A stretch of DNA of 64,000 nt from Verrucomicrobiales bacterium (lineage in GTDB: Bacteria; Verrucomicrobiota; Verrucomicrobiia; Limisphaerales; UBA11358). The position numbers were made by a program, and so were the translations under genes. Of the stretch, positions 14,633-59,971 are shown one piece after another; the stretch's first letter is position 1, and the number at the start of each line of letters is the position of its first letter. Under the pieces are notes generated by a model that was given only the letters and a program-made list of their open reading frames with translations, was not told the DNA's origin and searched no databases. Where the stretch lies: contig JAQTQB010000004.1 of NCBI GenBank assembly GCA_028712475.1, positions 67,368 through 131,367 on the forward strand, given 5' to 3'.

Positions 14633-15688
14633 ATGTCGCAGGAAAAAAATATCGCCGTCGCGCCCGATGCCACCCTGCCCTGGGCTGGCCGCTGGTTTTT
14701 CAACCGCCGCCGGTTTGCCCTGGTTCTGATTCTCGCCATTGGAGTGACCACGCCCGTGTTGCTGGCGCTCAATTGGGATCACAAACTGTTTTTCATCACA
14801 CTGGAACTGGCCACAAAATTTCTGATTGTTTATCCGGCCATTCGCGCCAACTGCCGCTGGTTTGGGCCGGTCGTCACCCGCTTTCGCACGCAGAAAAAAG
14901 CCGTCTGGCTCACCTTTGATGACGGGCCGCATCCCGAAGACACGCCGGAGTTGCTCAAGCTGCTGAAAAAACACAATGCGCGGGCGACGTTTTTCGTGAT
15001 CGGACAGCGGGTCCAAAAATATCCGGAACTGGCGCGGGCGATCTTGCGCGACGGTCACACGCTCGCCAATCACACCCAGACCCATCCCGCCCTGCTCTTC
15101 TGGAGTTTTCTCGCAACCCGCCTGACGCGGGAGATTGATCAATGCAACCAGTCATTGCGCGAAGCCGCCGGCGAACGGACGCATCTTGGCGCTGCCCCCG
15201 CTTTCTCCCTCTCCTCCACCGGGGGAGGAGAGGGTCGGGGTGAGGAGGCATCAATGTTGTCAGTTCAAATTCCCTCTCCCGCCATAGCCGCTGTCGCTGC
15301 TCCCCGTTTGGGCGGGGTGAGGGAGTCGGGGGCGGTGCCAAGATGCGCCCCCGGCGAACCGCCCCGCTGGTTTCGCGCGCCGGCGGGCATGGCCAATCTG
15401 TTCCTGCACTTTTTATTGTGCGACCGGGACATGAAGCTCATCGGCTGGTCGGCGCGCGGATTTGACGGGCTGTTTCACAATACCGAAGCCATGGCCAGGC
15501 GCATCCTCAAATCAATCCGACCCGGCGCGATCATTCTGTTGCACGAAGGCCGGCGCGACCGGCTGGGGCGTCCGGTCAATTTGCTTCTGGCCGAAACCAT
15601 CCTGATTCGGTTGAAGGCGGAAGGCTACGTTTTCACCGTGCCTGATGAAATAGATTTTCGGGGAGAATTAAAACTCACTCCTGAATAA
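14633..15688 (+). CDS. NodB-type polysaccharide deacetylase with N-terminal TM segments, carrying a 183-bp in-frame MITE insertion
   Basis: NodB motifs WLTFDDGPHPEDT, ATFFVIG, HTLANHTQTHP, then ..RWFRAPAG.. and ..IILLHEG. About 61 codons between GER and PRWFRAPAG derive from the repeat at 15177..15350. Confidence 0.88.
   Translation: MSQEKNIAVAPDATLPWAGRWFFNRRRFALVLILAIGVTTPVLLALNWDHKLFFITLELATKFLIVYPAIRANCRWFGPVVTRFRTQKKAVWLTFDDGPHPEDTPELLKLLKKHNARATFFVIGQRVQKYPELARAILRDGHTLANHTQTHPALLFWSFLATRLTREIDQCNQSLREAAGERTHLGAAPAFSLSSTGGGEGRGEEASMLSVQIPSPAIAAVAAPRLGGVRESGAVPRCAPGEPPRWFRAPAGMANLFLHFLLCDRDMKLIGWSARGFDGLFHNTEAMARRILKSIRPGAIILLHEGRRDRLGRPVNLLLAETILIRLKAEGYVFTVPDEIDFRGELKLTPE
15177..15350. 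mobile_element. MITE-like element (about 174 bp) with terminal inverted repeats and a 9-bp target-site duplication, inside the deacetylase CDS
   Basis: The ends ggacgcatcttggcgctgcccccg and cgggggcggtgccaagatgcgcccc are inverted repeats. It is flanked by the direct repeat ccggcgaac at 15168..15176 and 15351..15359. Element plus one TSD copy is 183 bp, or 61 codons. A second copy in inverted orientation lies at 20715..20876. Confidence 0.8.
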
Positions 15689-15726
15689 TCTTGATCACCC
15701 ATGCTCTTTTGATCAATTGATCTTGC

Positions 15727-17094
15727 GTGCCGAAGAAATCCACGCGCCAGCCAAAACCGCTTTACCGCCAGAAGAAGCCTAAAATTAAAGGCGATGATTT
15801 TGTCCATGCCGAGCCGATTGTTCCCGCGCATTTTGAACTCCGCGAAGACGGAACGATTGACGTTGCCAAGCGCGACGAGAAACGCGCCCCGGTTCTGACC
15901 TTCCGCGACGACACCCGCAACCTCTGGCTCTATCAAGGCAACTCCCTTGAATTGCTCGACGCCATCGCCGCCAAACATCCCGAAGGCCGGTTTGATTGCA
16001 TCTTTGCCGATCCACCGTATTTCCTTTCCAACGGAGGCATCAGTTGCCACGCCGGGCGGATGGTGAAGGTGGACAAGGGCGACTGGGACAAATCACGCGG
16101 TGCGGAAGTGAATCACGAGTTCAATCTGGAATGGCTCAAACGCTGCCAGAAAGTTTTGAAACCCAACGGCACAATTTGGATTACCGGCACGCATCACGTC
16201 ATTTTCAGCATCGGCTATGCGATGCAACAACTCGGTTTCAAAATCCTCAACGACATCGCATGGGAAAAGCCTAACCCGCCGCCGAATCTTTCCTGCCGTT
16301 ATTTCACCCACTCCACCGAAACCATTTTGTGGGCGGCCAAAAGTGAAAAATCCAAGCACCTGTTCAACTATCAGGAAATGCGCAAGGTCACGGGCAAGCA
16401 GATGAAAACCGTCTGGCGTGCCAGTGAATTTGGTGGTAGGGCGCGTCACTCCGTGCGCGCCGATGCTGGTCAGCCAGAAGACGGCGCGCAGGGGACTGAC
16501 GCGCCCTACCTTGACCCCATTTGGACGATGACTGCGCCGGGCAACGGCGAAAAGACCTTTGGCAAACATCCCACGCAAAAGCCGGTGGCGCTGGTCGAGC
16601 GTTGCATCTTGGCCTCCACACAACCCGGCGACATGGTGCTTGACCCGTTTTTGGGCGGCGGCACAACTGCCGTGGCTTGCGTCCGGCTGAATCGTGGCTG
16701 CATCGGGATTGAATTGGACTTCTCGCATTTCACGCTGGCGGCCAAACGTGCCGACCGAGAAATCATTGAACTTTGGCTGCGCGAATTCCGCGTGCGTTTC
16801 GACGTTACGATCTTTTTTCCTAATGATCTTGATCTCTTTTCTGAAACGATCAATGGATCAAGCGCGACGATGGACGACAAACCTCAAGTGCCGACCGAAA
16901 GCATTTACCACGAATGTAAATTCGTGTTCCTTTCGTGCGCCCAAGTCGAGCGCGGCGCGGTGGTTCACACGACGGTGGACGTGAGCTTGCAAGAAGCATG
17001 GGCGAAAACGCCGAATGGAAAGAAACGCGAGACGACGCACGTTGTCAGGTGTGAGACGGAAATTTTTCGTGTGGCTGAAAAGAAGCCGGTCTGA
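15727..17094 (+). CDS. Beta-class DNA methyltransferase (N6-adenine or N4-cytosine) with an uncharacterised C-terminal extension of about 100 aa
   Basis: Motif IV IFADPPYF precedes HPTQKPVALVERCI and motif I VLDPFLGGGTTAVAC. Residues after about 350 match nothing I recognise. A palindromic repeat is inserted in frame at 16435..16510. GTG start. Confidence 0.85.
   Translation: MPKKSTRQPKPLYRQKKPKIKGDDFVHAEPIVPAHFELREDGTIDVAKRDEKRAPVLTFRDDTRNLWLYQGNSLELLDAIAAKHPEGRFDCIFADPPYFLSNGGISCHAGRMVKVDKGDWDKSRGAEVNHEFNLEWLKRCQKVLKPNGTIWITGTHHVIFSIGYAMQQLGFKILNDIAWEKPNPPPNLSCRYFTHSTETILWAAKSEKSKHLFNYQEMRKVTGKQMKTVWRASEFGGRARHSVRADAGQPEDGAQGTDAPYLDPIWTMTAPGNGEKTFGKHPTQKPVALVERCILASTQPGDMVLDPFLGGGTTAVACVRLNRGCIGIELDFSHFTLAAKRADREIIELWLREFRVRFDVTIFFPNDLDLFSETINGSSATMDDKPQVPTESIYHECKFVFLSCAQVERGAVVHTTVDVSLQEAWAKTPNGKKRETTHVVRCETEIFRVAEKKPV
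16435..16510. repeat. 76-bp palindromic repeat (family B) inside the methyltransferase CDS
   Basis: ggtagggcgcgtcactccgtgcgcgcc ... ggcgcgcaggggactgacgcgccctacc forms inverted arms. The first 28 nt are identical to 36214..36241 in hsdM. Here it is translated as [25 protein letters not shown]. Confidence 0.85.
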
Positions 17095-18109: not shown

Positions 18110-18137
18110 GTTGAGGGTTGAGGGTTGAAAGTTGAAG
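18110..18137. repeat. Heptanucleotide tandem array (4 units)
   Basis: gttgagg gttgagg gttgaaa gttgaag. Confidence 0.8.
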
Positions 18138-18359: not shown

Positions 18360-18659
18360 ATGGCGAAAAAGATTTCCGGCGCGAAAACTTCCGAGGCTTC
18401 CGGTGGTTCCGGTGTAGCGTCGAGCCTGCGGCTCGATAAATCCGGCCACAGGCCGGACACTACACGGCAAAAACCCAGCTCCCTCCTCGACACCCGCGTC
18501 GTTTATTGCGGTGACAATCTGGAATAGCTCGCCAAGCTGCCCAATGCCTGCGTGGATTTGATCTACATTGACCCGCCCTTCAACTCCAACCGCAACTACG
18601 AGGTGTTTTGGGGCGAGACCAAGGAGAAGCGCGCCTTTGAAGACCGCCACGAGAACTAA
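18360..18659 (+). pseudogene. N-terminal fragment of a DNA methyltransferase with an in-frame stop
   Basis: MAKKISGAK...VVYCGDNLE*LAKLPNACVDLIYIDPPFNSNRNYEVFWGETKEKRAFEDRHEN*. The DPPF motif IV region is present, TAG at 18525..18527 is in frame, and there is no motif I or C-terminal part. Confidence 0.7.
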
Positions 18660-27556: not shown

Positions 27557-30500
27557 TCAAACCGCCCACTCGGCGCACAGCAGCCTGGCCTGCTCCAAAA
27601 CGGTTTGCGTGGCCTTCTCCTGCTTGTCTGGCGGATAGCCGTATTTGCGGAGGATGCGGCGGACGAGGACACGGATTTGAGCCTGGGCAGATTCGCGCAG
27701 CGTCCAGTCAATCGTCACGCTTTTGCGGACGTGTGAGACTAACTCGCGGGCGATGTCCTTTAATGTGGGTTCACCAAGAACTTTCACGGCGCTGTCGTTC
27801 ACTTCCAACGCGTCGTAAAACGCAACTTCATCATCCGTGAGGCCGAGGTCTTTGCCGCGCTTATGGCCTTCGCGCATCTGCTTGGCGAGTTCGATGAGTT
27901 CTGCAATGACCTGCGCCGCTTCAATGGTTCGGTTTTGGTATTTGCGGATGGTGGCTTCCAGCATTTCGGCAAACGAGCGGGATTGAACGAGGTATTTCTT
28001 CGAGCGGATTTTCAGTTCGTTGTTGAGCAGCTTTTGCAGCAACTCGACGGCAAGGTTGCGCTGGGGCAAATGCTGGACTTCCGCCAGGAACTCGTCGGAC
28101 AAAATTGAAATGTCCGGCTTCTTCAACCCGGCGGCGTCGAAGATGTCGATGACCTTGTCGGATGAAATCGCGCGGGAAACAATTTGCCGGACGGCCAGCT
28201 CCAATTCTTCCGGTGATTTTCCGCCGCCTTCGCTGATGCTCTTGGCCAGCACGGCGCGGACTTCCTGAAAGAATCCGACTTCATCACGAATCTCCAATGC
28301 CGAGTCATGCGGCACAGAGAGAGCGAACGCCTTGGACAGTTCCGTGACTGCCAACAGGTAGCGCGGCTTGCCGTCTTTTTGCTGCAACACATGCTCGGCG
28401 GCTTGTGCAATGAGCGGCAGCCTCTTTGCCGCTGTTGCCTTGGCCGCGCCCTCGTAATCAAACCCGTGCAGGATGGCGCAGACCTGCTCGTATTTCTCCA
28501 GCATCACGGCGACGGCTTCTTCCTGATCCAGCGTGATGTCGCCTTTGCCTTTGCTGTTCGTGTAATCGGCCAGCGCCTGTTTCAATTCCTCCGCCAGTCC
28601 GAGGTAATCCACCACCAAGCCGCCGGGCTTGTCTTTGAAAACCCGGTTCACCCGCGCGATGGCCTGCATCAGGCCGTGACCGCGCATCGGCTTGTCCACA
28701 TACATCGTGTGCAGGCTCGGCGCATCAAAGCCGGTCAGCCACATGTCGCGCACGATGACGATGCGGAACGGCTTCTTCGGATTCTTGAACGCTTTCGCCA
28801 GTTCCTCGCGCCTTGCTTTGCTGCGGATGTGTTGCTGCCACTCCAATGTGTCGGAAGCCGAGCCGGACATGACGATCTTCATCGTGCCTTTGTCATCGTC
28901 CTCGTGATGCCAGGCCGGGCGCAGTTTCTGGATCGCCTTGTAAAGCTCCACGCAGATGCGGCGGCTCATGCAGACGACCATCGCCTTGCCTTCCATCGCG
29001 GCGTAACGCGCTTCCCAATGCTTCACCAAATCCTCAGCCACGAGCGCGATGCGCTTGTCCGTCCCGACCATCGCTTCCAGTTGCGCCCACTTCCGGCGCA
29101 GACTTTCCTTCGTGGATTCCTCCGCATCTTCCGTCACTTCTTCAAAGTTCGGGTCAATCTTCGGGCGTTCCTCCGGCTTCAAATCAATCTTCGCCAGCCG
29201 CGCCTCGTAATAAATCGGCACGGTGGCCTTGTCCTCCTTCGATTGCAGAATGTCGTAAACGTCAATGTAATCGCCGAACACGGCCTGCGTGTTCTTGTCG
29301 CCACTTTCAATCGGCGTGCCGGTGAAGCCGATGAACGACGCCTTGGGCAGCGCATCCCTCATGTGTTTGGCGAAGCCGTCAATAAAATCGTATTGGCTGC
29401 GGTGCGCTTCGTCAGCGATGACGACGATGTTGCGCCGGTCGGATAGCAGCGGATGCTTGCCGCCTTTTTCATCGGGAAAGAATTTCTGAATCGTGGTGAA
29501 CACCACCCCGCCGCTGGCGACGTTGAGCAACTCGCGCAAATGTTCCCGGCTCTCCGCCTGAACGGGTATTTGCCGGATCAACTCTTTGCAAAAGGAGAAC
29601 GTGTCGAAAAGCTGGTCGTCCAGATCGTTGCGGTCGGTGAGCACGACGATGGTGGGATTCTCCATCGCCGGGTGCTGCACGATTTTTCCGGCGTAGAAAA
29701 CCATCGAAAGACTTTTGCCGCTGCCTTGCGTGTGCCAGATGACGCCCGCCCGTCTGTCGCCGATTTGATTCGTAGCAGCCGACGTGAGTCGGCTCTGACT
29801 TTCCGCTGGGGAATTAGAATGAGCGGACTCACGTCCGCTGCTACCAGTTAAAGCAACCCCCGCCGCCTTCAACGTAGATTCCACCGCCTTGTTGACTGCG
29901 TGGAATTGGTGATAGCCCGCCAGCTTCTTCACGACCTTTTCGCCATCATCTTCAAAGACGATGAAGTTGCGGACCAAGTCCAGCAGACGAGCCTTCTCGA
30001 ACACGCCTTTGAGCATGGTTTCCAGTTGCAACGAACCGGGCGGCACAAGCTCCTTGCCGGTGATGGTGCGCCACGTCATGAACCGCTCCCAATCCGACGT
30101 GACCGTGCCGAGCCGCGCTTCGTGGCCGTCCGAAATCACCAGCAGCGCGTTGGAGTGGAACAGCGACGGGATTTGCGCCTTGTAAGTCTGGAACTGGTCG
30201 AACGCCTTGCGGATGGTGGCCTGTTCGTCCGCAATGTTTTTGAGTTCCAGCAGTGCCAGCGGGATGCCGTTGATGAACACCACTACGTCAGCGCGGCGGT
30301 TGAAATGGCCTTCCTCCACTGTGAATTGATTGACCGCGAGGAATTCGTTGGCTTCGGGATTCGCAAAATCAATCAGCCAGACCTTGTCGTGAACGATTTG
30401 CCCTTCGCGGTTGCGAAACTCCACGTCCGCGCCTTCAACAAGCAGGCGATGAAACGCGCGGTTGTTTTCGATGAGCGTCGGATGGCTGATGAGCCGGAGT

Positions 30501-30721
30501 TTCCGCAACGCTTCTTGCAACCCTTCCTGCGGAACCTTGGGATTCAAATCCTTCAGCTTGGTTTGCAACCGGTCGAAAAGAAAAACCTGCTTGTAATCCG
30601 CGCGCTCCGCCGCCGGTTCGCCCGGCGCAATCGCCAGTCCCGACAAAACTTCGTATCCCAGCCCACGAAGCCAGTCGAGCGCGGCATCCTCCACGACAGA
30701 TTCGGTGATGCCTTTGCTCAT
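27557..30721 (-). CDS. hsdR: Type I restriction enzyme R subunit (HsdR), with a 72-bp in-frame palindromic insertion
   Basis: 1054 aa. N-terminal nuclease region, then helicase motifs [29 protein letters not shown] and QAIARVNR. The repeat-derived segment [24 protein letters not shown] sits just before motif I. Confidence 0.95.
29772..29843. repeat. 72-bp palindromic repeat (family C) inside hsdR
   Basis: gtagcagccgacgtgagtcggctc + 24-nt spacer (tgactttccgctggggaattagaat region) + gagcggactcacgtccgctgctac. The 24-bp arms are near-perfect inverted repeats. Related copies are at 53738..53813 and 56392..56467. Confidence 0.85.
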
Positions 30722-49289: not shown

Positions 49290-51455
49290 TTATTTGTCCG
49301 GCGGTGCGGGCGCAGGTGATTTCGACTCCGATTCCATCTGCGCCTGAAGCCCGCGATGATCCACCTTGCCGGTGCCGAGTTTCGGAATCTCTTTCACCGC
49401 CTTGATCTCGCGCGGCACGGAGAGATTCGTCAATCCCCTGGCTTTGATGGCGTCGCGGATTTCGTCCAGGGTCAGCTTCGGCTCGTTCGTCACGGCGATG
49501 AGCATTTCCCCTTTGTTTTCATCGGGACGCGTGACGACGGCGATCTGGCAGCGCAGACCGTATTGCGGAAACGCCCCGGCCAGCGCGTCTTCCACCGCCG
49601 TAAGGCTCACCATCTCGCCGCTCACCTTGGCGAAGCGTTTCATCCGCCCGCGGATGTGCAGATAGCCTTCGGCATCCACGCTCACGATGTCGCCGGTGTC
49701 ATACCATCCGCCGAGGGCCAGGAATTTTGCGTTCGCGTCGGCGTTCAAGTAGCCTTTCATCACGTTCGGCCCGCGCACGAAGAGGCGTCCGCCTTCGTCC
49801 ACGCCTTCGACTTTTTCCAGCTTGCATTCCATGCCGGGCAGGAGCCGGCCCACGGAGCCATTGCGCGGCTCGAGCGGCGTGTTGACACTCACGCACGGGG
49901 CGCATTCCGTCGCGCCATAACCTTCGAGGATGCGCACGCCGTATTTTTGCGACCACGCGAGCGCGGTGGCTTCCTGCAATTTCTCGGCGGCGGAAAAAAG
50001 ATACCGCAGGCTGCGAAAGTCATAGGGATGGGCCTTGCGGGCGTAGCCGTTCAGGAAGGTGTTCGTGCTGATGAACACCGTGCAATCACGGTCGTAAAAC
50101 ACCGATGGCACCACGCGATAATGCAGGGGGGAAGGATAAAGGAAGACATAGATGCCGCGCACCAGCGGCACAAACGTCCCCACGGTGAGGCCAAAGCTGT
50201 GAAAGAGCGGGAGACAGTTGAAGAGGCGGTCGCGGTCGGTGAAATCCGTGACGGCCAGCATCTGGCGGATGTTGGCGAGGATGTTTCCGTGAGTCAGTTC
50301 AACGCCCTTGGGCACGCCTTCGGAGCCGCTTGTGAAAACAATCACGGCGGCGGAGCTGGCAGATGGAGGATGGAGGATGGAGGATGGAAGATGGAGAATA
50401 TGCCGGAGCAGCGTGAGGAATTTCCGGGGACTGCTTACGCCAGCTTGCGCGTCTTCGAGATAGATCACGCTGACGCCCGCTTTGATAAAATCGTCCACGT
50501 TGAGCCGGGCGCGTTCGAGAAAGGCGCGCGAAGTGATGATGTGTTTCAGTCCGGCGAGTTCCACGCACGCCAGCATGGTGGGCATGCCCGAGGAAAAGTT
50601 CAGCATGGCGGGCACTTTGCCCAGCCGCCACAAGGCGAGGATGACCACCGGCGTGGCGTTGACATTGGGCAACAACAGGCCAATGCGTCCGCCACCCGCA
50701 ACGGTGCCGCGCAACGCGTGCGCCAGCACATCCGCCCCCACCATCAGTTTCCGACAGGTCAGCTTTTGCAGCGTCGCGTCTTCGAGAATGATTTGGCCCG
50801 GGCGTTCGCGTGCGGTCTCCGCCACCGCAGAGAGGACATTCTGCGCGCCGAAATTCATCTCGACCTCGAACTGCTGCCGCACCATCTGGTCGCGGAGCCA
50901 GATGGTCAGCCGCGACCGTGCGCGGCCGGTGCTGACTTCCCCCAGCTCGGGCGCGGCCAGCGCGGCGCTGAAATGCGCGGTCACTTTGGGGAAACATTTT
51001 TTCCAGCCCGGATTGGGTGAATACGGCAGGCGTTCGGCGCCGCGCAAGTAGGCCGTGATGACGCGCGCCTTGGTTTTGAAAATCAAAAATCCCGTGCCAT
51101 CAAAAAGCTTCATCAAGTCACCCGTGCGAGAGAGGCGGCCTTCGGCAAAAAGCACGAGCCGCCCGCCGCCTTTAAGAAACTCCGCCATGCGCTTCACTGC
51201 ATAAGGCGAACCGGGATCAACGGGCAGGGTGTAATGGTTGATCATCAATTTACGATGCAGCCAGCTCGTCTGCGCCGCGATGCTCGAGGTGACGAACTTC
51301 CAATCATCCTCCAGGCAGACCCAGAGAAACAGCCAGTCAAACCAGGAGCAGTGATTGGGGATCAACAGCACCGGGCCGGGTGTTTTCAGCGCGTCCAGGT
51401 CATAAGCCCGAAAGCGAAACAAAACCTGGAGCAAAAAGCGGAAGCAAGTTTTCAT
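49290..51455 (-). CDS. aas: Bifunctional acyltransferase / acyl-ACP (AMP-dependent) synthetase, Aas-like
   Basis: The N-terminal LPLAT has LIPNHCSWFDWLFL and FAEGRLSRTG. The C-terminal adenylation domain has IVFTSGSEGVPKGVELTH, EGYGATE, YDTGD and GTGKVDHR. The heptamer-array-derived LPSSILHPPS precedes the AMP motif. ATG at 51455; a TTG at 51494 is also in frame. Confidence 0.88.
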   Translation of the reverse strand: MKTCFRFLLQVLFRFRAYDLDALKTPGPVLLIPNHCSWFDWLFLWVCLEDDWKFVTSSIAAQTSWLHRKLMINHYTLPVDPGSPYAVKRMAEFLKGGGRLVLFAEGRLSRTGDLMKLFDGTGFLIFKTKARVITAYLRGAERLPYSPNPGWKKCFPKVTAHFSAALAAPELGEVSTGRARSRLTIWLRDQMVRQQFEVEMNFGAQNVLSAVAETARERPGQIILEDATLQKLTCRKLMVGADVLAHALRGTVAGGGRIGLLLPNVNATPVVILALWRLGKVPAMLNFSSGMPTMLACVELAGLKHIITSRAFLERARLNVDDFIKAGVSVIYLEDAQAGVSSPRKFLTLLRHILHLPSSILHPPSASSAAVIVFTSGSEGVPKGVELTHGNILANIRQMLAVTDFTDRDRLFNCLPLFHSFGLTVGTFVPLVRGIYVFLYPSPLHYRVVPSVFYDRDCTVFISTNTFLNGYARKAHPYDFRSLRYLFSAAEKLQEATALAWSQKYGVRILEGYGATECAPCVSVNTPLEPRNGSVGRLLPGMECKLEKVEGVDEGGRLFVRGPNVMKGYLNADANAKFLALGGWYDTGDIVSVDAEGYLHIRGRMKRFAKVSGEMVSLTAVEDALAGAFPQYGLRCQIAVVTRPDENKGEMLIAVTNEPKLTLDEIRDAIKARGLTNLSVPREIKAVKEIPKLGTGKVDHRGLQAQMESESKSPAPAPPDK
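50362..50396. repeat. Heptanucleotide tandem array (5 units) inside aas
   Basis: gatggag gatggag gatggag gatggaa gatggag. Confidence 0.85.
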
Positions 51456-51973: not shown

Positions 51974-53035
51974 ATGAGGAATGGCAGGCCGATGCTGCAA
52001 TTCCATTCGTTATTTGTCATTCGTCATTCTGGACGCTACGCTTTGCCTGTGACCGATTCCATCTTCCAATCACTTGCCGCCGCCGCGCGTGGCGGCGAAT
52101 CCGTCGCGCTCGGCATCATCACCGCCGTGAAAGGGTCGAGTCCGCAGAAGCTCGGCGCGAAGGCGCTGTTTTATCCCGACCGGAAAATCAAAGGCACGCT
52201 CGGCGGCGGCTGTCTGGAGGCCGAGGCGCAGCGGCTCGCCCTCAATTCGCTCAAGACCGGCAAGCCGGAATCTTTTGAACTCGTCCTTGACCACGATTTC
52301 GGCTGGGACGACGGCCTGATCTGCGGCGGGAAAGTTTTGGGCGTTATTTTGCCCAACGCGCAGCGGCTCGGCGAAAAATTCTGGAGTGAACTGGCCGAAC
52401 GCCACGCAGCTAAAATTTGGGGTGTAAGAAAGGATTTTTCAATCGCCTCCCCCGGCCCGGCTCTCAAACCTCAAACCTCAAACCTCAACCCTTCCGACTG
52501 GCTCTACACCGAAACCATCACGCCGTCGTGCGCGTTGTGGATAGCCGGTTCCGGCCACATCGCCCAGGCCGTCGCGCCGCTGGCCTTGCAACTGGATTTC
52601 GCCGTCACGATTTTTGACGACCGTCCTGAACTGGCGAACCACGAAATATTTCCGCGCGATGTTTCCATCCACGTCGGCAACTGGGGCGATCTGTGCGCCG
52701 CTCCGCTTCCCAATGTGCCGGCGTTTGGCCTCATCGTCACACGTGGACACAAGCACGACGCGCTCGTGCTGGAGACGTGGATTCACAGGCCGTTCCGATT
52801 CCTCGGCATGATCGGCAGCACCCGCAAGGCGCGGACGATTGCCGAGCACTTCGTGAAAAAGCAGATTGCCACCGCCGAAGAAGTCGCGCGCGTCGCTTGT
52901 CCGGTCGGAATAAAAATCCGCTCGCAAAGCGTGATGGAAATCGCCGTGGACATCCTGGCGCAATACATAGACAAGCGGGCGGAACTGGTGAGCGAGAAGC
53001 AAGCTGCGGCGGCGGGAAAAATTGAATTGGTCTAG
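51974..53035 (+). CDS. xdhC: XdhC/CoxI-family molybdenum-cofactor insertion accessory protein
   Basis: ..GESVALGIITAVKGSSPQKLGAKALFYPDRKIKGTLGGGCLEAEA.. and the C-terminal Rossmann-like part LWIAGSGHIAQAVAPLA..IVTRGHKHD. The start is uncertain because the first codons run through a heptamer array. A second array is in frame at 52463..52490. Confidence 0.88.
   Translation: MRNGRPMLQFHSLFVIRHSGRYALPVTDSIFQSLAAAARGGESVALGIITAVKGSSPQKLGAKALFYPDRKIKGTLGGGCLEAEAQRLALNSLKTGKPESFELVLDHDFGWDDGLICGGKVLGVILPNAQRLGEKFWSELAERHAAKIWGVRKDFSIASPGPALKPQTSNLNPSDWLYTETITPSCALWIAGSGHIAQAVAPLALQLDFAVTIFDDRPELANHEIFPRDVSIHVGNWGDLCAAPLPNVPAFGLIVTRGHKHDALVLETWIHRPFRFLGMIGSTRKARTIAEHFVKKQIATAEEVARVACPVGIKIRSQSVMEIAVDILAQYIDKRAELVSEKQAAAAGKIELV
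52004..52031. repeat. Heptanucleotide tandem array (4 units) at the 5' end of xdhC
   Basis: cattcgt tatttgt cattcgt cattctg. Confidence 0.75.
52463..52490. repeat. Heptanucleotide tandem array (4 units) inside xdhC
   Basis: ctcaaac ctcaaac ctcaaac ctcaacc, the reverse complement of the gtttgag/gttgagg type seen at 18110..18137. It is translated as LKPQTSNLNP. Confidence 0.85.
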
Positions 53036-53036
53036 C

Positions 53037-56000
53037 TTACTTGGCCAAAACCAGATCCGGCTTCGGTGATTCTTTGCTGTCCACGTCTCGTTGCTCCTGA
53101 ATCGCCATCCAGATCGCCTCGCAAGTCGCGGGTGACGCTAGCGCCACCTCACCTTTGCCTGAACCAAACGCCGCCACGGCATCACGGATCGCCTCGCGCA
53201 CCGAGATGGCCAGCATCAACGGCGGTTCGCCCACGGCTTTGCTGCCATGAACAACGCTTTTCTGCGTCGCGTTCTTGAGCAAGGTCACTTTGAAGATTTG
53301 CGGCGTGTCACCGATGGACGGGATTTTGTAGGTGTCCGGTGAATGCGTGAGCAAAACCCCTTGGTCATCCCACTTCAATTCCTCGGCCGTGAGCCAGCCC
53401 ATGCCTTGCACGAAGCCGCCTTCGATCTGGCCGCGATTCACGCCTTCATTCACCGAGTCGCCCACGTCATGCAAAATGTCCACGCGCAAGACGCAGTGCA
53501 TTCCCGTGAAGCCATCCACCTCGACCTCCGTCACCGCCGCGCCGTTTGCAAAATAATGAAACGGCTTGCCATGTCCCGCCGCGCGATCCCAATGAATCCC
53601 CGGCGTCGCATAATATCCCGTCGCCAGCAAGCTCACGCGCGACAAATAGGCTTTCTTCACGACATCGGCGAAGGAAATTTTCACGTCTGGCAGCGTGCGA
53701 TGAAAAGAAAATCCGTCGGCGAAAACCAAATCCTCCGCAGCAGCCGGCGTAAGGAGGCTCTGAGCGCTTTCGTTTTCCGCTTTTGATTTGAGCCTCGTCA
53801 CCTCGGCTGCTACGAGTTCAAGAGCCGCCGGCGTCAGCCGCGCTCGCAAAATTTCGCACGCATTTTTCACCGCCGCGCCGTTCAAGTCCGTGCCCGCGCT
53901 CGCCGCCGTGGCGGAAGTGTTCGGCACTTTGTCCGTGCTGGTCGGCATCACGCGGATATTCTCCAGCTTCACGCCGAGCGTTTGCGCCGCGATCATCGCC
54001 ACGTTCGTGTGCAATCCCTGCCCCATCTCCGTGCCGCCGTGGTTCAACTGCACCGTGCCGTCCTGATAAATCAAAATGAACGCGCCCGCTTGATTCATAT
54101 GCGTGACGGTAAAACTGATGCCGAATTTCACCGGCGTGATGGCAATGCCTCGTTTGGTGTGAGGATGCCTTGCGTTCCAGTCAGCGATTTCCTTGCGGCG
54201 TTTTTCCAGCTCGGAAGTTTTTTTCAACTCGTGCCAGATGGTCTGGATCCGATTGTCTTCAATCTCCTGCCCGTAGTGCGTGGTGTTCGTCTCACCGCTG
54301 CCACGGTAAAGGTTTCGTTCGCGGACAACTTCCGGTGGCAGGCCGAGCCTGCGCGCGATACGGTCGAGGATTTCTTCCATGACCAGCATGCCCTGCGGCC
54401 CGCCGAAGCCGCGAAATGCCGTGTTTGATGACAGATTTGTTTTTGCAACCTGCCCGCGAAACTCCACCGCCGGAATATAATACGCGTTGTCGAGATGGAA
54501 CAGCGCGCGGTCGGTCACGGCCTGCGACAAATCCTGCGACCAGCCGCCATTGGAAGTCAGATGAACTTGCGCCGCCTGCAACAAACCGTCCTTGTCAAAA
54601 CCAACATTAAACTTCGCGAGAAACGGATGGCGATGGCCGGTGAGCGCCATGTCCTGATCGCGATTGAACCGCACGCGCACCGGCTTGCCGGTATGATGCG
54701 TCGCCAGCGCGGCCAGCGCGGCAGGTGTGGCCGCCTGCGTTTCCTTGCCGCCGAAACCGCCGCCCATGCGCGGCACTTGCACCACCACCTTGTTCGCGGG
54801 CAGATGCAACACATGAGAAATCACCTGCTGCACCTCCGACGGATGCTGCGTGGACGAAACGACGAACACCGACCCGTCCTCGCCGCGTGTCGCATGCGCC
54901 GCCTGCGTCTCCAGGTAGAAATGTTCCTGACCGCCAAGTTCAAACTCGCCTTCAATTACCAGTGGCGCAGCGGACAAGCCTTTTACTGAATCACCGCGCC
55001 GGATAAAGTTGGGTTCGTTGTGAAAACTCCCTTTTGCCACCGCATCGCGCAATGTGAGAATCGGCGCCAGCGGTTCATATTCAACGACGACCTTCTCCGC
55101 CGCCGCGCGACACGTCTCCTGCGAATCTCCGACGACGAGCGCGACAAGCTGGCTGTGGAAGAGAACTTCGCGCGACGCCAGCAACGGCTCGTCGTGCTTC
55201 GTGCCAACGTCGTTCTCGCCCGGAATGTCCTCGGCAAACAGCACGGCTTTGATGCCGGGCATCTGGCGCGCGGCGGTCGCGTCGCATTTGATAATTTTCG
55301 CCCGCGCGTGCGGCGAGCAGACGGGCCAGACTTCGAGCATGCCGCTGGTCTGGTCATCCACATACATCGCCTCGCCTGTGACGTGTTTGTGCGCGCTTTC
55401 GTGGGGCTGTGCCTGGAGCGCGGACTTCAGGCCGCTTCGACATTCGAGCGGTGACGCGGCATGAACGCTGCGCTCCGATTCGCCGGCGAAAAATTTCCCC
55501 AGCAGACTCGCAATCAAACCGCTGCGGTATTCCGCCGTGCCGCGCACGTCAGAGATGGGCGTGAACTCCGTCCGTAATACCGGCAACGCGCGCTGAATCG
55601 TTTCTTCACTCCAAATTTTGCCAGCCAATGCGGCTTCTGTTTTCCGTGCCCGCGCAGGCATGGCGGCAACGCCGCCGTAAGCGAGCCGCACATGACGCAC
55701 GATGTTCTGTTTATCCAAATCCACCACGAAACACCCGGCCACGGTGCTGATGTCCATCTCGCGGCGTTTGGAAACTTTGAACCACTCCGCCTTGCGCGTC
55801 AGTCCCGCCGCCGCGCCGCCGCGCGGGATGATGATGGTTTTGAGGACTTCGTTTAGTTGCAGCGCAGTCTTTCGATAGGAAATAAAAAAGTCACTGATGG
55901 GCAACGTGCGTTCCCCAGATTCGGATGCAAGCACAACCCTTGCATCCAGCGCGAGCAGCACGGGCGCGCTGTCGCCGATGGGCGAGGCGATGGCGAGGTT

Positions 56001-56978
56001 GCCGCCCATCGTGGCGCGATTACGGATCTGCCGCGAGCCGAACACGCAGAGCATGTCGCCCAGCACGGGAAATTCTTCGCCGAGCCGGTCTTCAATTTCC
56101 GTGAGCGTGACCGCAGCGCCGATGTGCCATTCGCTGGCGGCGCGGCGGATTTTGTTCAAATCCGAGACGGCTTCCACGGAAATCAGCGTGGTGAATTTTT
56201 TGTAGCGCTTGGTGATGTCGAGTCCCATTTCCGTGGCCCCGGCAATGATGCGCGCCTCGGGAAATTTCTTCAGCAGGACGAGAAGTTTGTGCAGCGTGGC
56301 AGGGCGGAAAAAATTTTCCCCGTTAAATTCGTATGCGGCCGCGCCGAGCTTCGCGTCCGATTTTTTCAGGCGGTCGGCAAACATATCTTCGTAGGAGCCG
56401 ACGTCAGGAGGCTCTGACTGTTTCCCATTTCCGCTTTTGATTTGAGCCTCGTCACCTCGTCTCCTACAGGAAAAAGCTTCCACCGCCGCGTCACGGATTG
56501 AACGATACCCGGTGCAGCGGCAGAGATTGCCGGCAAGTTGTTCGTCGAGATCGCCGTGCGTGTGAAGGTCGTCGCGATAGTAGCCCTCGAACATCGAGCA
56601 GATGAAGCCGGGCGTGCAATAGCCGCATTGCGAGCCGTGAAGTTCGACCATGGCGTGCTGCACCGGATGTAATCCCGAAAGCGCGGAGTGCGGAGTGCGG
56701 AGTGTGGAATTACAAACACCTTCAGCGCTTACCACCTCGCGGCCCGCGAGCAGGCAGACGGGCATGAGGCAACTGTTCACCGCGCGATAAGTTGGCTTGC
56801 CGTTCGCGCCGCGCTCGACAATGGCGACGGAGCACGCGCCGCAATCGCCTTCGGCACAGCCTTCCTTCGATCCGGTGAAGCCGGAACTGCGGAGAAATTC
56901 AAGCAGCGTCGTGTTGGGAGAAGTGTTCTCAACGCAAACCGGCTGGCCGTTCAAAATGAATTCAAATGCGCCGGACAT
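53037..56978 (-). CDS. Xanthine dehydrogenase, single polypeptide (2Fe-2S + FAD + molybdopterin domains fused)
   Basis: 1313 aa. Motifs: GCAEGDCGACSV and HGSQCGYCTPGF (the two 2Fe-2S centres), the FAD domain (..IIAGATEMG..GGNLAIASPIGD..) and the Mo domain (..GGGFGGKE.., ..FRGFGGPQG.., ..GTEMGQG.., ..KAVGEPP). Three repeat-derived in-frame segments are present. Confidence 0.93.
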   Translation of the reverse strand: MSGAFEFILNGQPVCVENTSPNTTLLEFLRSSGFTGSKEGCAEGDCGACSVAIVERGANGKPTYRAVNSCLMPVCLLAGREVVSAEGVCNSTLRTPHSALSGLHPVQHAMVELHGSQCGYCTPGFICSMFEGYYRDDLHTHGDLDEQLAGNLCRCTGYRSIRDAAVEAFSCRRRGDEAQIKSGNGKQSEPPDVGSYEDMFADRLKKSDAKLGAAAYEFNGENFFRPATLHKLLVLLKKFPEARIIAGATEMGLDITKRYKKFTTLISVEAVSDLNKIRRAASEWHIGAAVTLTEIEDRLGEEFPVLGDMLCVFGSRQIRNRATMGGNLAIASPIGDSAPVLLALDARVVLASESGERTLPISDFFISYRKTALQLNEVLKTIIIPRGGAAAGLTRKAEWFKVSKRREMDISTVAGCFVVDLDKQNIVRHVRLAYGGVAAMPARARKTEAALAGKIWSEETIQRALPVLRTEFTPISDVRGTAEYRSGLIASLLGKFFAGESERSVHAASPLECRSGLKSALQAQPHESAHKHVTGEAMYVDDQTSGMLEVWPVCSPHARAKIIKCDATAARQMPGIKAVLFAEDIPGENDVGTKHDEPLLASREVLFHSQLVALVVGDSQETCRAAAEKVVVEYEPLAPILTLRDAVAKGSFHNEPNFIRRGDSVKGLSAAPLVIEGEFELGGQEHFYLETQAAHATRGEDGSVFVVSSTQHPSEVQQVISHVLHLPANKVVVQVPRMGGGFGGKETQAATPAALAALATHHTGKPVRVRFNRDQDMALTGHRHPFLAKFNVGFDKDGLLQAAQVHLTSNGGWSQDLSQAVTDRALFHLDNAYYIPAVEFRGQVAKTNLSSNTAFRGFGGPQGMLVMEEILDRIARRLGLPPEVVRERNLYRGSGETNTTHYGQEIEDNRIQTIWHELKKTSELEKRRKEIADWNARHPHTKRGIAITPVKFGISFTVTHMNQAGAFILIYQDGTVQLNHGGTEMGQGLHTNVAMIAAQTLGVKLENIRVMPTSTDKVPNTSATAASAGTDLNGAAVKNACEILRARLTPAALELVAAEVTRLKSKAENESAQSLLTPAAAEDLVFADGFSFHRTLPDVKISFADVVKKAYLSRVSLLATGYYATPGIHWDRAAGHGKPFHYFANGAAVTEVEVDGFTGMHCVLRVDILHDVGDSVNEGVNRGQIEGGFVQGMGWLTAEELKWDDQGVLLTHSPDTYKIPSIGDTPQIFKVTLLKNATQKSVVHGSKAVGEPPLMLAISVREAIRDAVAAFGSGKGEVALASPATCEAIWMAIQEQRDVDSKESPKPDLVLAK
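53738..53813. repeat. Palindromic repeat (family C) inside xdh, copy 1
   Basis: gcagcagccggcgtaaggaggctc .. tttccgcttttgatttgagcctcgtcacctcg gctgctac. The 32-mer at 53774..53805 is identical to 56428..56459. It is translated as ..VAAEVTRLKSKAENESAQSLLTPAAA.. Confidence 0.8.
56392..56467. repeat. Palindromic repeat (family C) inside xdh, copy 2
   Basis: gtaggagccgacgtcaggaggctc + spacer + gagcctcgtcacctcgtctcctac. It shares the exact 32-mer with copy 1 but sits in a different codon phase (offset 2654 nt, which is 2 mod 3). It is translated as ..RRGDEAQIKSGNGKQSEPPDVGSY.. Confidence 0.85.
56683..56710. repeat. Heptanucleotide tandem array (4 units) inside xdh
   Basis: gcggagt gcggagt gcggagt gtggaat. 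It is translated on the minus strand as ..NSTLRTPHSALSG.. between the two Fe-S motifs. Confidence 0.85.
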
Positions 56979-59874: not shown

Positions 59875-59963
59875 GCTCCAACATCCAAGTTTCGGAGAAG
59901 CTCCAAACTTCAACGTCCAATCGGAAGCGCGCACCGCCAGGTTTGGAGCTTGGAACTTGGAGC
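59875..59963. repeat. Inverted pair of heptamer arrays (Ntccaa units vs ttggagc units) in the intergenic region
   Basis: Left: gctccaa catccaa .. gctccaa acttcaa cgtccaa. Right: ttggagc ttggaac ttggagc. gaagctccaaac and gtttggagctt can pair as a long hairpin just upstream of the mmsA ATG. Confidence 0.75.
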
Positions 59964-59971
59964 TTTTTAAC

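Follow-up and report, generated by a model that had tools for sequence, protein, structure and literature searches.

In-frame GTAG-type REP dimers in the hsdR and xanthine dehydrogenase genes of a Verrucomicrobiales bacterium

How can one kind of palindrome lie within two unrelated genes, be read in different codon phases and leave both reading frames open? The question is raised by a 64-kb stretch of DNA from a Verrucomicrobiales bacterium (hereafter the window), which contains three copies of an element termed family C. It could be argued that such elements are constrained to remain stop-free in several phases, or that only compatible insertions survive; these were the two alternatives offered by the original prediction, and as we describe here only the second agrees with the behaviour of the family as a whole.

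Three palindromes within two intact genes

The window palindromes have GTAG...CTAC ends, 24-nt arms and total lengths of 73-77 nt. The copy in hsdR (29772..29844, minus strand) is 73 nt long, its arms (29772-29795 and 29821-29844) being separated by a 25-nt spacer. The other two, each of 77 nt and on the minus strand, reside in a xanthine dehydrogenase (XDH) gene, one (56391..56467) in the linker after the 2Fe-2S domains and the other (53737..53813) in the molybdopterin-binding part. All three had been recognized previously, although with coordinates that were off by one base (the hsdR copy ends at 29844, not 29843). The arms of the hsdR copy are mismatched at two positions only, and each is also self-complementary (GCCGAC-GTGA-GTCGGC and GCGGAC-GTGA-GTCCGC); a repeat search returned this copy as a 32-nt inverted repeat with 84% complementarity. 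A weak 8-nt extension of its arms was also visible. The plus-strand first tetranucleotide of the 53737-53813 copy is a degenerate GCAG, the sole degenerate tag among the six window arms. Matches to the arm pattern in the window exceed chance, with nine observed against 1.46 expected, a number reached in none of 100 shuffles.

Both host genes are intact. HsdR, the R subunit of a type I restriction enzyme (27557..30721, minus strand; 1054 aa), displays the Pfam domains HSDR_N, ResIII, SWI2_SNF2 and T1RH-like_C. On the sense (minus) strand the palindrome supplies 23 residues between a flanking G and T, ~15 residues upstream of the GSGKS motif, and falls between the segments that align to residues 119-267 and 294-411 of EcoR124I HsdR. 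An AlphaFold2 model of HsdR, derived from a 28-sequence alignment, was discarded (mean pLDDT 45.9, pTM 0.28), and thus the coil predicted at residues 287-335 carries no information. The second host is a single-chain XDH (53037..56978, minus strand; 1313 aa) in which the Fe-S, FAD and molybdopterin parts are fused. Its 56391-56467 insert is read as (C)RRRGDEAQIKSGNGKQSEPPDVGSY in the phase GT|AGG, and the linker that holds it aligns only weakly, with gaps, to rat XDH. The 53737-53813 insert is read as VAAEVTRLKSKAENESAQSLLTPAA in the phase GTA|GCA, and there the HMMER alignment to the rat enzyme is interrupted (residues 1051 to 1107 of the query, 1104 to 1117 of rat XDH). The peptides predicted to span the XDH inserts are EVTRLKSKAENESAQ and GDEAQIKSGNGK. 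These data bear out the proposed in-frame location, once in the HsdR open reading frame (ORF) and twice in that of XDH. The exact 32-mer reported for the XDH copies (53774-53805 and 56428-56459) is likewise present, its two occurrences being 2654 nt apart (2 mod 3), and EVTRLKSKAE and GDEAQIKSG are indeed the same DNA in two codon phases.

The comparison with orthologues that had been advocated for both genes revealed presence/absence variation at the insert sites. HsdR orthologues of ~85-93% identity comprise some with and some without the insert, many close ones lacking any, and the 56391-56467 insert is found in some XDH orthologues and missing from others. The 53737-53813 site is occupied by family C, by another GTAG family or is empty, while among HsdR orthologues of >90% identity the occupants of the insert site include a CCCTCTCCC/GGGAGAGGG hairpin, a TCGGAGGG palindrome and GTAG REPs of at least two families. 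At the HsdR nuclease-helicase junction and at both XDH sites, closely related orthologues carry several unrelated palindromic families, remnants or nothing, at exactly the same codon-level position. Such recurrent occupancy may mean that insertion is targeted to pre-existing hairpins, with a rapid turnover of 'linker cassettes' that diversifies protein linkers, rather than mere scarcity of permissive sites, although we regard this extension as rather improbable.

RNA folding, another of the checks suggested at the outset, showed that the window copies form stable hairpins, whose dG lies between -32 and -48 kcal/mol and whose z-score lies between -3 and -10 (-46.6 kcal/mol and z -10 for the hsdR copy); at gathering thresholds Rfam matched no family anywhere in the window. 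It could be argued that a function at the level of the nucleic acid keeps the intragenic copies in place, possible roles being an mRNA-stability hairpin, ribosome pausing between domains or a gyrase/IHF site in DNA of the type proposed for other REPs. Such a function would be compatible with a REP/RAYT origin, and is consistent with the very stable hairpins (mean minimum free energy -45 kcal/mol), with the position of the inserts at domain boundaries of HsdR and XDH, and with the different palindromic families that occupy the same sites in orthologues. It should be emphasized, however, that many close orthologues lack the insert and that spacers and lengths are hypervariable. Furthermore, in 25 of 35 intragenic copies (p 0.005) the hairpin of the sense strand is slightly less stable than its antisense counterpart, whereas selection for an mRNA hairpin predicts the reverse. 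We thus consider retention through a nucleic-acid function to be unlikely.

Arm structure of family C and its association with RAYT genes

A scan of species-representative genomes with the arm pattern identified at least 120 loci, and among the matches listed almost all are in Verrucomicrobiota metagenome assemblies. The listed loci and the three window copies provided 85 full elements (inverted dimers), a biased sample, in which the arms are conserved, the spacers are hypervariable in both sequence and length (17-50 nt) and the elements span 61-98 nt. The 24-nt arm, with the consensus GTAGCAGCCGACGTGAGGAGGCTC, starts with GTAG and 2 nt, continues with a hairpin whose 6-bp stem pairs positions 7-12 with 17-22 and whose loop is GTGA, GTAA or GTCA, and ends with a further 2 nt. 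At each of positions 1-4 the consensus base of the GTAG tag is present in both arms of 77-83 of the 85 elements. The stem covaries: at positions 12/17, which the search pattern left free as S/S, 129 arms have CG, 21 have GC and 2 are mismatched, and at positions 9/20, scored in the partner arms that were unconstrained, 44 have CG, 16 have GC and 3 have another combination. The covariation score of 0.272 compares with 0.072 +/- 0.016 for shuffles, none of 500 being as high, and with at most 0.095 for slid controls, although the covariation could partly stem from a few subfamilies inherited many times. In 17-25 of the 85 elements the two arms differ from each other at exactly positions 9/20 and 12/17, so that the long hairpin is mismatched and each arm hairpin is preserved. 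The small arm hairpin is weak in the main arm subtype, as its 6-bp stem contains two G.A mismatches (10/19 and 11/18, G.A/A.G), and the 24-bp hairpin between the two arms would be thermodynamically favoured over the arm hairpins within a single strand. As each arm comprises GTAG and a covarying 6-bp hairpin, the element constitutes a REPIN-like inverted dimer of GTAG-type REPs. Lone single arms also exist (locus L125).

At all six independent loci examined in related genomes, family C REPs adjoin a gene encoding a homologue of RAYT, the REP-associated tyrosine transposase. REPs lie on both sides of this gene, within ~15-120 nt, at four of the loci (L014, L127, L129/L130 and L131); at L108 the contig ends inside the RAYT gene, and at L128 there are diverged upstream copies only. 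The L014 gene (L014:935-1561) encodes a protein of 208 aa with the HUH motif DHIHLV and the Tyr motif YVLMNPV (in YVLMNPVKDG). The protein matches NCBIfam NF047646, 'REP-associated tyrosine transposase', with an E-value of 7e-12 at 45 bits, which is below the curated cut-off of 80, and a Pfam search of the same protein gave no match. Its homologues number 1362 at E <= 1e-10, many bearing the JGI name 'REP element-mobilizing transposase RayT'. The best match of known structure, albeit weak (E 8.5e-5, 25 bits), is E. coli TnpA-REP with a REP hairpin (PDB 4ER8; Messing et al. 2012, PMC3479197), the aligned motifs being lpdHiHlvW/lpeHmHciW and gYvlmNPVKdG/dYiyiNPVKhG. Within the 64-kb window no RAYT gene was found, and thus the enzyme is tied to this genome by family and not by locus. 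The RAYT genes are often on short contigs, perhaps because assemblies break at the repeats that flank them.

From these observations we consider it likely that family C comprises GTAG-tagged REPs, arranged as REPIN-like inverted dimers, that are mobilised by RAYT and survive in genes where they are compatible. The original description of the palindromes as a mobile family landing in genes is the right one. The family is dispersed among Verrucomicrobiota of the Limisphaerales/Pedosphaera type, and a cognate RAYT, an HUH/Y1 enzyme like E. coli TnpA-REP, would most likely move its elements as single-stranded DNA, copies landing between genes and within genes alike.

With its 24-nt terminal inverted repeats, its elements of 61-98 nt and its numerous scattered copies, family C also resembles a classical MITE, a deletion derivative of an insertion sequence with a DDE transposase that would be unrelated to RAYT. 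Such elements, however, would not explain why the arms consist of GTAG and a self-complementary, covarying hairpin that can occur alone, or why RAYT genes are flanked by family C repeats at every locus examined. In addition, no target-site duplication was evident, since in 84 copies direct repeats 2-8 nt long, sought at offsets of 0-8 nt, were only as frequent as expected by chance. A MITE origin is thus highly improbable. Beyond the 24-nt arms, complementarity exceeded chance at flank position 1 only (34/84). It was expected that intragenic copies would preserve the frame by a GTAG-to-CTAC length that is a multiple of three; contrary to this expectation, that is the case in just 3 of 37, and lengths congruent to 1 or 2 (mod 3) are found in intragenic and intergenic copies alike. 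As filled and empty alleles also differ in the residues that flank the insert, insertion of the RAYT-associated dimer is not a clean cut-and-paste of the unit as delimited here.

Reading phases and survival within genes

Of the 85 listed copies, 37 (44%) are deep inside long ORFs and 48 are not, many of the latter lying 0-20 nt from the end of an ORF. The same criterion scores 61% of random segments of 75 nt as intragenic, and family C is thus depleted inside genes relative to such segments. Nine host ORFs contain full Pfam domains and are real genes (FtsX, TPR/CHAT, PSD/PSCyt, UvrA in three cases, AcrB, P-type ATPase and UvrB).

The intragenic copies are read in only two phases, GT|AGC (23 copies) and GTA|GCA (14 copies), which are those left open by the arms, the TAG of GTAG always closing one phase per strand. 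Use of both arm-open phases family-wide, and of two phases in the window, together with an arm consensus that on each strand is closed solely in the phase with the TAG of GTAG, might suggest that the element evolved to be stop-free in several phases and thereby to colonise genes. This adaptive design is very unlikely. Over the 85 copies a mean of 2.26 of six phases is open compared with 2.45 for mononucleotide shuffles of the same sequences, and openness is no greater in intragenic copies (2.22) than in intergenic ones (2.29). Indeed, the XDH copies are closed in four of six phases, in part by a TGA immediately after the arm (GGCTCTGA), and the remaining two are the phases in actual use; the hsdR copy is closed in three of six. 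In the absence of a stop-codon deficit relative to shuffles, and given the depletion in genes and the mere two open phases of the XDH copies, the data indicate survivorship and not multi-phase design. Thus, of the alternatives originally proposed, survival of compatible insertions stands, and the constraint to be stop-free in several phases does not.

Persistence of a family C dimer in a gene would need a phase in which neither the terminal TAG nor a stop codon of the spacer is read, a total length that keeps the frame, and a permissive linker or loop as its site. Inserts that pass this filter would be translated as ~22-31 hydrophilic residues, VAADVRRL...SLLTSAAT or xSSRREEA...EPPHVGCY, and are probably neutral for the host protein. 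Five same-strand ORF pairs that abut non-deep elements, candidates for genes split by insertion, were tested with Pfam and all proved to be separate, complete genes. That the inserts are not really coding, being excised from the RNA or, in an intein-like manner, from the protein before it matures, is extremely unlikely: nothing direct favours it beyond a 24-bp RNA stem that should be a good RNase III substrate, removal would need no open frame, yet no split gene emerged among these five pairs, intein or intron features and Rfam matches are lacking, and Rickettsia proteins that carry RPE-1 are reported in PMC3733652 to be expressed in vivo.

Relation to known palindromic elements

In-frame GTAG REP dimers have been known in a related bacterium since 2013, and family C adds another member without revealing a new mechanism. 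GTAG REPs, REP dimers, RAYT 'REPtrons' and intragenic REPs are described by Di Nocera, De Gregorio and Rocco (2013, BMC Genomics 14:522, PMC3733652). Intragenic GTAG REP dimers are there most numerous in the verrucomicrobium Opitutus terrae (~70 intragenic copies), where they encode 20-30 residues, are hosted by genes including uvrA, an AcrB-type pump and an N-6 DNA methylase, and again include one REP read in several frames. Family C and the O. terrae elements have in common the terminal GTAG, a short stem-loop, frequent inverted dimers, variable spacers and a REP-flanked RAYT; the 6-bp stem of family C is within the 6-9 bp typical of most of the GTAG superfamily. The encoded peptides, however, are different (VAGVADPG, GTGVPPV and VGPALAAG in O. 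terrae; VAADVRRL and SSRREEA in family C), as is the host clade, which for family C consists of Limisphaerales/Pedosphaera-type metagenome genomes. By these peptides family C is a different sequence family, although it might formally equal one of GTAG-1 to GTAG-24. Furthermore, the superfamily is mostly intergenic and near the 3' ends of ORFs, whereas the deep intragenic fraction of family C (37/85) is far above that of typical REPs.

The REPIN-RAYT systems (Bertels and Rainey 2011, PLoS Genet, PMC3116915; Nunvar et al. 2010) resemble family C in the inverted REP pair that forms a long hairpin, in encoding no transposase internally and in a RAYT flanked by REPs. In contrast, classical REPINs of Pseudomonas and enterobacteria are extragenic with conserved spacers, while family C has hypervariable spacers and almost half of the copies sampled lie in frame in genes. 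Rickettsia palindromic elements (RPEs; Ogata et al. 2000, via PMC3733652) are similar to family C as in-frame palindromes that add a peptide to a gene that stays functional. RPE-4 and RPE-6 belong to the CGTC superfamily and RPE-1 is longer, and RPEs lack the GTAG tag and occur in a different phylum. Judged from their tags, the two probably have no sequence relation. As the family C tag is GTAG and not CGTC, the relation is one of behaviour, namely in-frame residence, and not of membership.

These findings document a wide occurrence of REP/RAYT systems among uncultured Verrucomicrobiota of soil and freshwater, in which 'extragenic' palindromes are routinely read through as predicted protein segments. 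In annotation the inserts appear as orthologues of variable length and as low-complexity loops, and for protein engineering they flag naturally permissive sites in HsdR, XDH, UvrA, UvrB and AcrB. Family C also constitutes a large natural data set in which selection filters mobile hairpins by phase and position.

Family C elements in hsdR and the XDH gene

Three copies of the family C palindromic repeat lie within minus-strand genes of the window, one in hsdR (29772-29844) and two in the gene encoding xanthine dehydrogenase (XDH), at site 2 (53737-53813) and site 1 (56391-56467). All three consist of 24-nt inverted arms around a spacer of 25-29 nt and end in CTAC; two, including the hsdR copy, begin with GTAG and one with GCAG. 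The palindromes are present as described in the original prediction, which located the three sites correctly but gave each element one base too short. It also held, correctly, that the XDH copies share an exact 32-mer offset by 2 mod 3, and the XDH translation indeed reads this one DNA as both EVTRLKSKAE and GDEAQIKSG. The arm motif has nine matches in the window against 1.46 expected, a number attained by none of 100 shuffles, and the hairpins, folded as RNA, have free energies between -32 and -48 kcal/mol (z-scores between -3 and -10). The observation holds, its limits are well defined, and it is clear what the window elements are: dimers of short GTAG-tagged hairpins (REPs), tolerated in frame at permissive sites.

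Both host ORFs are intact and minus-strand: HsdR, the R subunit of a type I restriction enzyme (27557-30721), comprises 1054 aa and XDH (53037-56978) 1313 aa. The latter is one fused, eukaryote-like chain with Fe-S, FAD and molybdopterin parts, in contrast to Rhodobacter capsulatus XDH, whose two chains were matched separately as 1jro_A and 1jro_B. The best-scoring 120 XDH homologues are all fused chains of 1236-1407 aa, and those that are named come mostly from Verrucomicrobiota.

Insertion sites, reading phase and survival

HsdR homologues at ~85-93% identity fall into two groups, without an insert or with 20-45 extra residues at exactly the same point, which is ~15 residues ahead of the GSGKS motif and falls between segments aligning to residues 119-267 and 294-411 of EcoR124I HsdR. 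In DNA the filler is a family C dimer in the window and in L126 (L-numbers denote loci from other genomes), a single family C arm in L125, a GTAG…CTAC dimer other than family C in L121, a nested hairpin (CCCTCTCCC/GGGAGAGGG, read as PLPSDGRG) in L124 and a palindrome (TCGGAGGG…CCCTCCGA) in L123; L122 has no filler. Both XDH sites display the same patchwork of fillers, or none, among XDH orthologues of 70-82% identity. Site 1 is the linker following the Fe-S domains, and site 2 coincides with a break in the rat XDH alignment, where 55 query residues stand against 12 rat residues. As judged from these alignments, the window elements are insertions into genes that are conserved apart from them, and the HsdR site represents an insertion hot spot, or else its fillers turn over fast.

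Viewed at the codon level, the HsdR site (window ~29760-29860; L121-L126) is occupied in orthologues more than 90% identical by no fewer than four unrelated kinds of palindrome or by a single REP, or is empty; identical sites are used repeatedly by unrelated palindromic families. Among the site 2 orthologues examined (proteins P0031, P0032, P0037, P0060 and P0065), some contain a second GTAG family, read VGQASRLS…ETGATPVL, and others a longer segment, QAATKKPGEPDLTRASLPDD...TAHK.GE.

Scanning a degenerate 24-nt arm pattern against species-representative genomes returned at least 120 loci, and nearly all the matches listed are metagenome-assembled Verrucomicrobiota of Limisphaerales, Pedosphaera-like and Verrucomicrobiia types. 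These matches and the window yielded 85 complete elements of 61-98 nt. A copy was termed deep intragenic when a stop-free frame crossed it within an ORF no shorter than 750 nt, with at least ~150 nt of ORF on either side. By this test, which is blind to copies that destroyed a gene, and in a sample anchored on one well-conserved arm among the matches listed, 37 of the 85 copies (44%) were deep intragenic compared with 61% of random 75-nt segments from the same loci, ~3 standard deviations under expectation by our own arithmetic. A Pfam check identified nine host ORFs as real genes (FtsX-type permease, TPR/CHAT, PSD/PSCyt, three UvrA, AcrB, P-type ATPase and UvrB), and the remaining copies lie mostly 0-20 nt from ORF ends. 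Five same-strand ORF pairs beside an element, suspected of being split genes, proved to be separate, complete genes.

It could be argued, as in the original prediction, that the elements are constrained to be stop-free in several phases. On average, however, an element has 2.26 of six phases open compared with 2.45 for mononucleotide shuffles, and intragenic copies have 2.22 compared with 2.29 for the others; thus, there is no sign of a stop-free build, and the adaptive multi-phase interpretation is not supported. The alternative also offered there, that only compatible insertions survive, is by itself an adequate account, selection purging incompatible insertions being sufficient to explain the pattern. 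Intragenic copies, whose length is seldom divisible by three, are read in phase GT|AGC (n=23) or GTA|GCA (n=14), the phase that meets TAG being uncountable by construction of the test. XDH-type copies have just two phases open, and they share one orientation because both of these are on the sense strand of XDH. In the intragenic copies (37; L003-L117 and the window) the sense (mRNA) hairpin is slightly less stable than the antisense hairpin in 25 of 35 copies (means -44.3 and -46.6 kcal/mol; Wilcoxon p 0.005).

REP architecture and a candidate mobilising enzyme

Across the 85 elements the arms are strongly conserved (consensus GTAGCAGCCGACGTGAGGAGGCTC), and the spacers are hypervariable, with frequent short heptamer tandem arrays. 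Every arm also forms a small hairpin of its own, with a stem of positions 7-12 and 17-22 closed by a GTGA, GTAA or GTCA loop. Positions 12/17, unconstrained (S/S) in the search pattern, carry CG in 129 arms and GC in 21, with a mismatch in only two, and positions 9/20 in unconstrained partner arms are CG in 44, GC in 16 and other in three. The covariation score for 57 distinct arms is 0.272 compared with 0.072 +/- 0.016 for shuffles, none of 500 of which scored as high, and no slid control exceeds 0.095. Within a single element the arms often differ at exactly the covarying positions (17-25 of 85 elements), leaving the long hairpin mismatched and both arm hairpins intact, as in the hsdR copy (GCCGAC…GTCGGC and GCGGAC…GTCCGC). 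The palindrome extends no more than one base past GTAG/CTAC, and no target-site duplications surround the elements at offsets of 0 to 8 nt. The architecture is that of a GTAG-type REP as an inverted dimer, resembling a REPIN. Two of the loci, L030 (contig CAWBHS010000087.1) and L061 (CAWBHS010000062.1), belong to one metagenome-assembled genome, MFD05684.bin.2.284.

Family C repeats lie on either side of a 208-aa ORF in L014 that contains HUH (DHIHLV) and tyrosine (YVLMNPVKDG) motifs. The protein had no match in a Pfam search; it matches NCBIfam NF047646, 'REP-associated tyrosine transposase' (RAYT), at E 7e-12 and 45 bits, under the 80-bit cut-off, and its closest solved structure is E. coli TnpA-REP (PDB 4ER8, E 8.5e-5), with which both motifs align. 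Homologues at E <= 1e-10 number 1362; JGI calls many of them 'REP element-mobilizing transposase RayT', and many sit on very short contigs, perhaps because assemblies broke at the flanking repeats. A family C repeat adjoins the RAYT-homologue gene in all six loci inspected, L014, four further independent homologue loci and L108. In L014, L127, L129/L130 and L131, family C REPs lie both upstream and downstream of the gene, within ~15-120 nt; L128 has only diverged copies, upstream, and the L108 contig ends within the gene. The 64-kb window itself contains no RAYT gene. Family C REP dimers are probably mobilised by RAYT.

The GTAG- and CGTC-tagged REP superfamilies were defined by Di Nocera, De Gregorio and Rocco in 2013 (PMC3733652), who reported RAYT 'REPtrons' as well as REP dimers whose spacers vary. 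Dimers or groups, which encode 20-30 residues, made up more than half of their intragenic inserts; many of the hosts were DNA-repair genes, uvrA being one, and a supplementary table gives ~70 examples from O. terrae that include uvrA, an AcrB-type pump and an N-6 DNA methylase. One REP was read in several frames (GTGVPPV, HGRDARAT, WHGRPAR, TGGTPVP), and ASPIC/UnbV paralogues carried different REP families at about one position. These authors argued that selection purged inactivating insertions, the tolerated ones being in linkers or loops. Family C differs from these GTAG REPs in sequence and host clade but is of the same kind; the Rickettsia palindromic elements, from a different phylum, are a behavioural analogue.

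Other repeats in the window

A fourth in-frame GTAG...CTAC dimer, of another sequence family (GTAGGGCGCGTCACTCC...GGACTGACGCGCCCTAC), occupies 74 nt at 16436-16509 within a DNA methylase gene (ORF 15721-17094, plus strand; Pfam N6_N4_Mtase), in phase GT|AGG. A 50-nt GTAG...CTAC unit at 18414-18463 comprises two small hairpins (GTAGCGTCGAGCCTGCGGCTCGA...CCGGCCACAGGCCGGACACTAC) and may be intergenic, since a Pfam search with the short ORF around it gave no match. The palindrome CCCTCTCCTCCACC/GGGGGAGGAGAGGG at 15207-15234 is similar to the hairpin family found at the HsdR site of L124. Tandem arrays of 7-nt units, with 2.7-5 copies each, occur at 56683-56708, 50362-50396, 52004-52029, 52463-52492, 59943-59965 and 18110-18128. 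The first of these (GCGGAGT) is within the XDH gene and encodes NSTLRTPHSALS, and at this site XDH orthologues have the variants NSALRTSHSAL, NSELRTPNSEL or NAECGMRNAEC, or nothing. Similar heptamer arrays occur in the family C dimer spacers of other genomes (L017, L035, L074 and L103).
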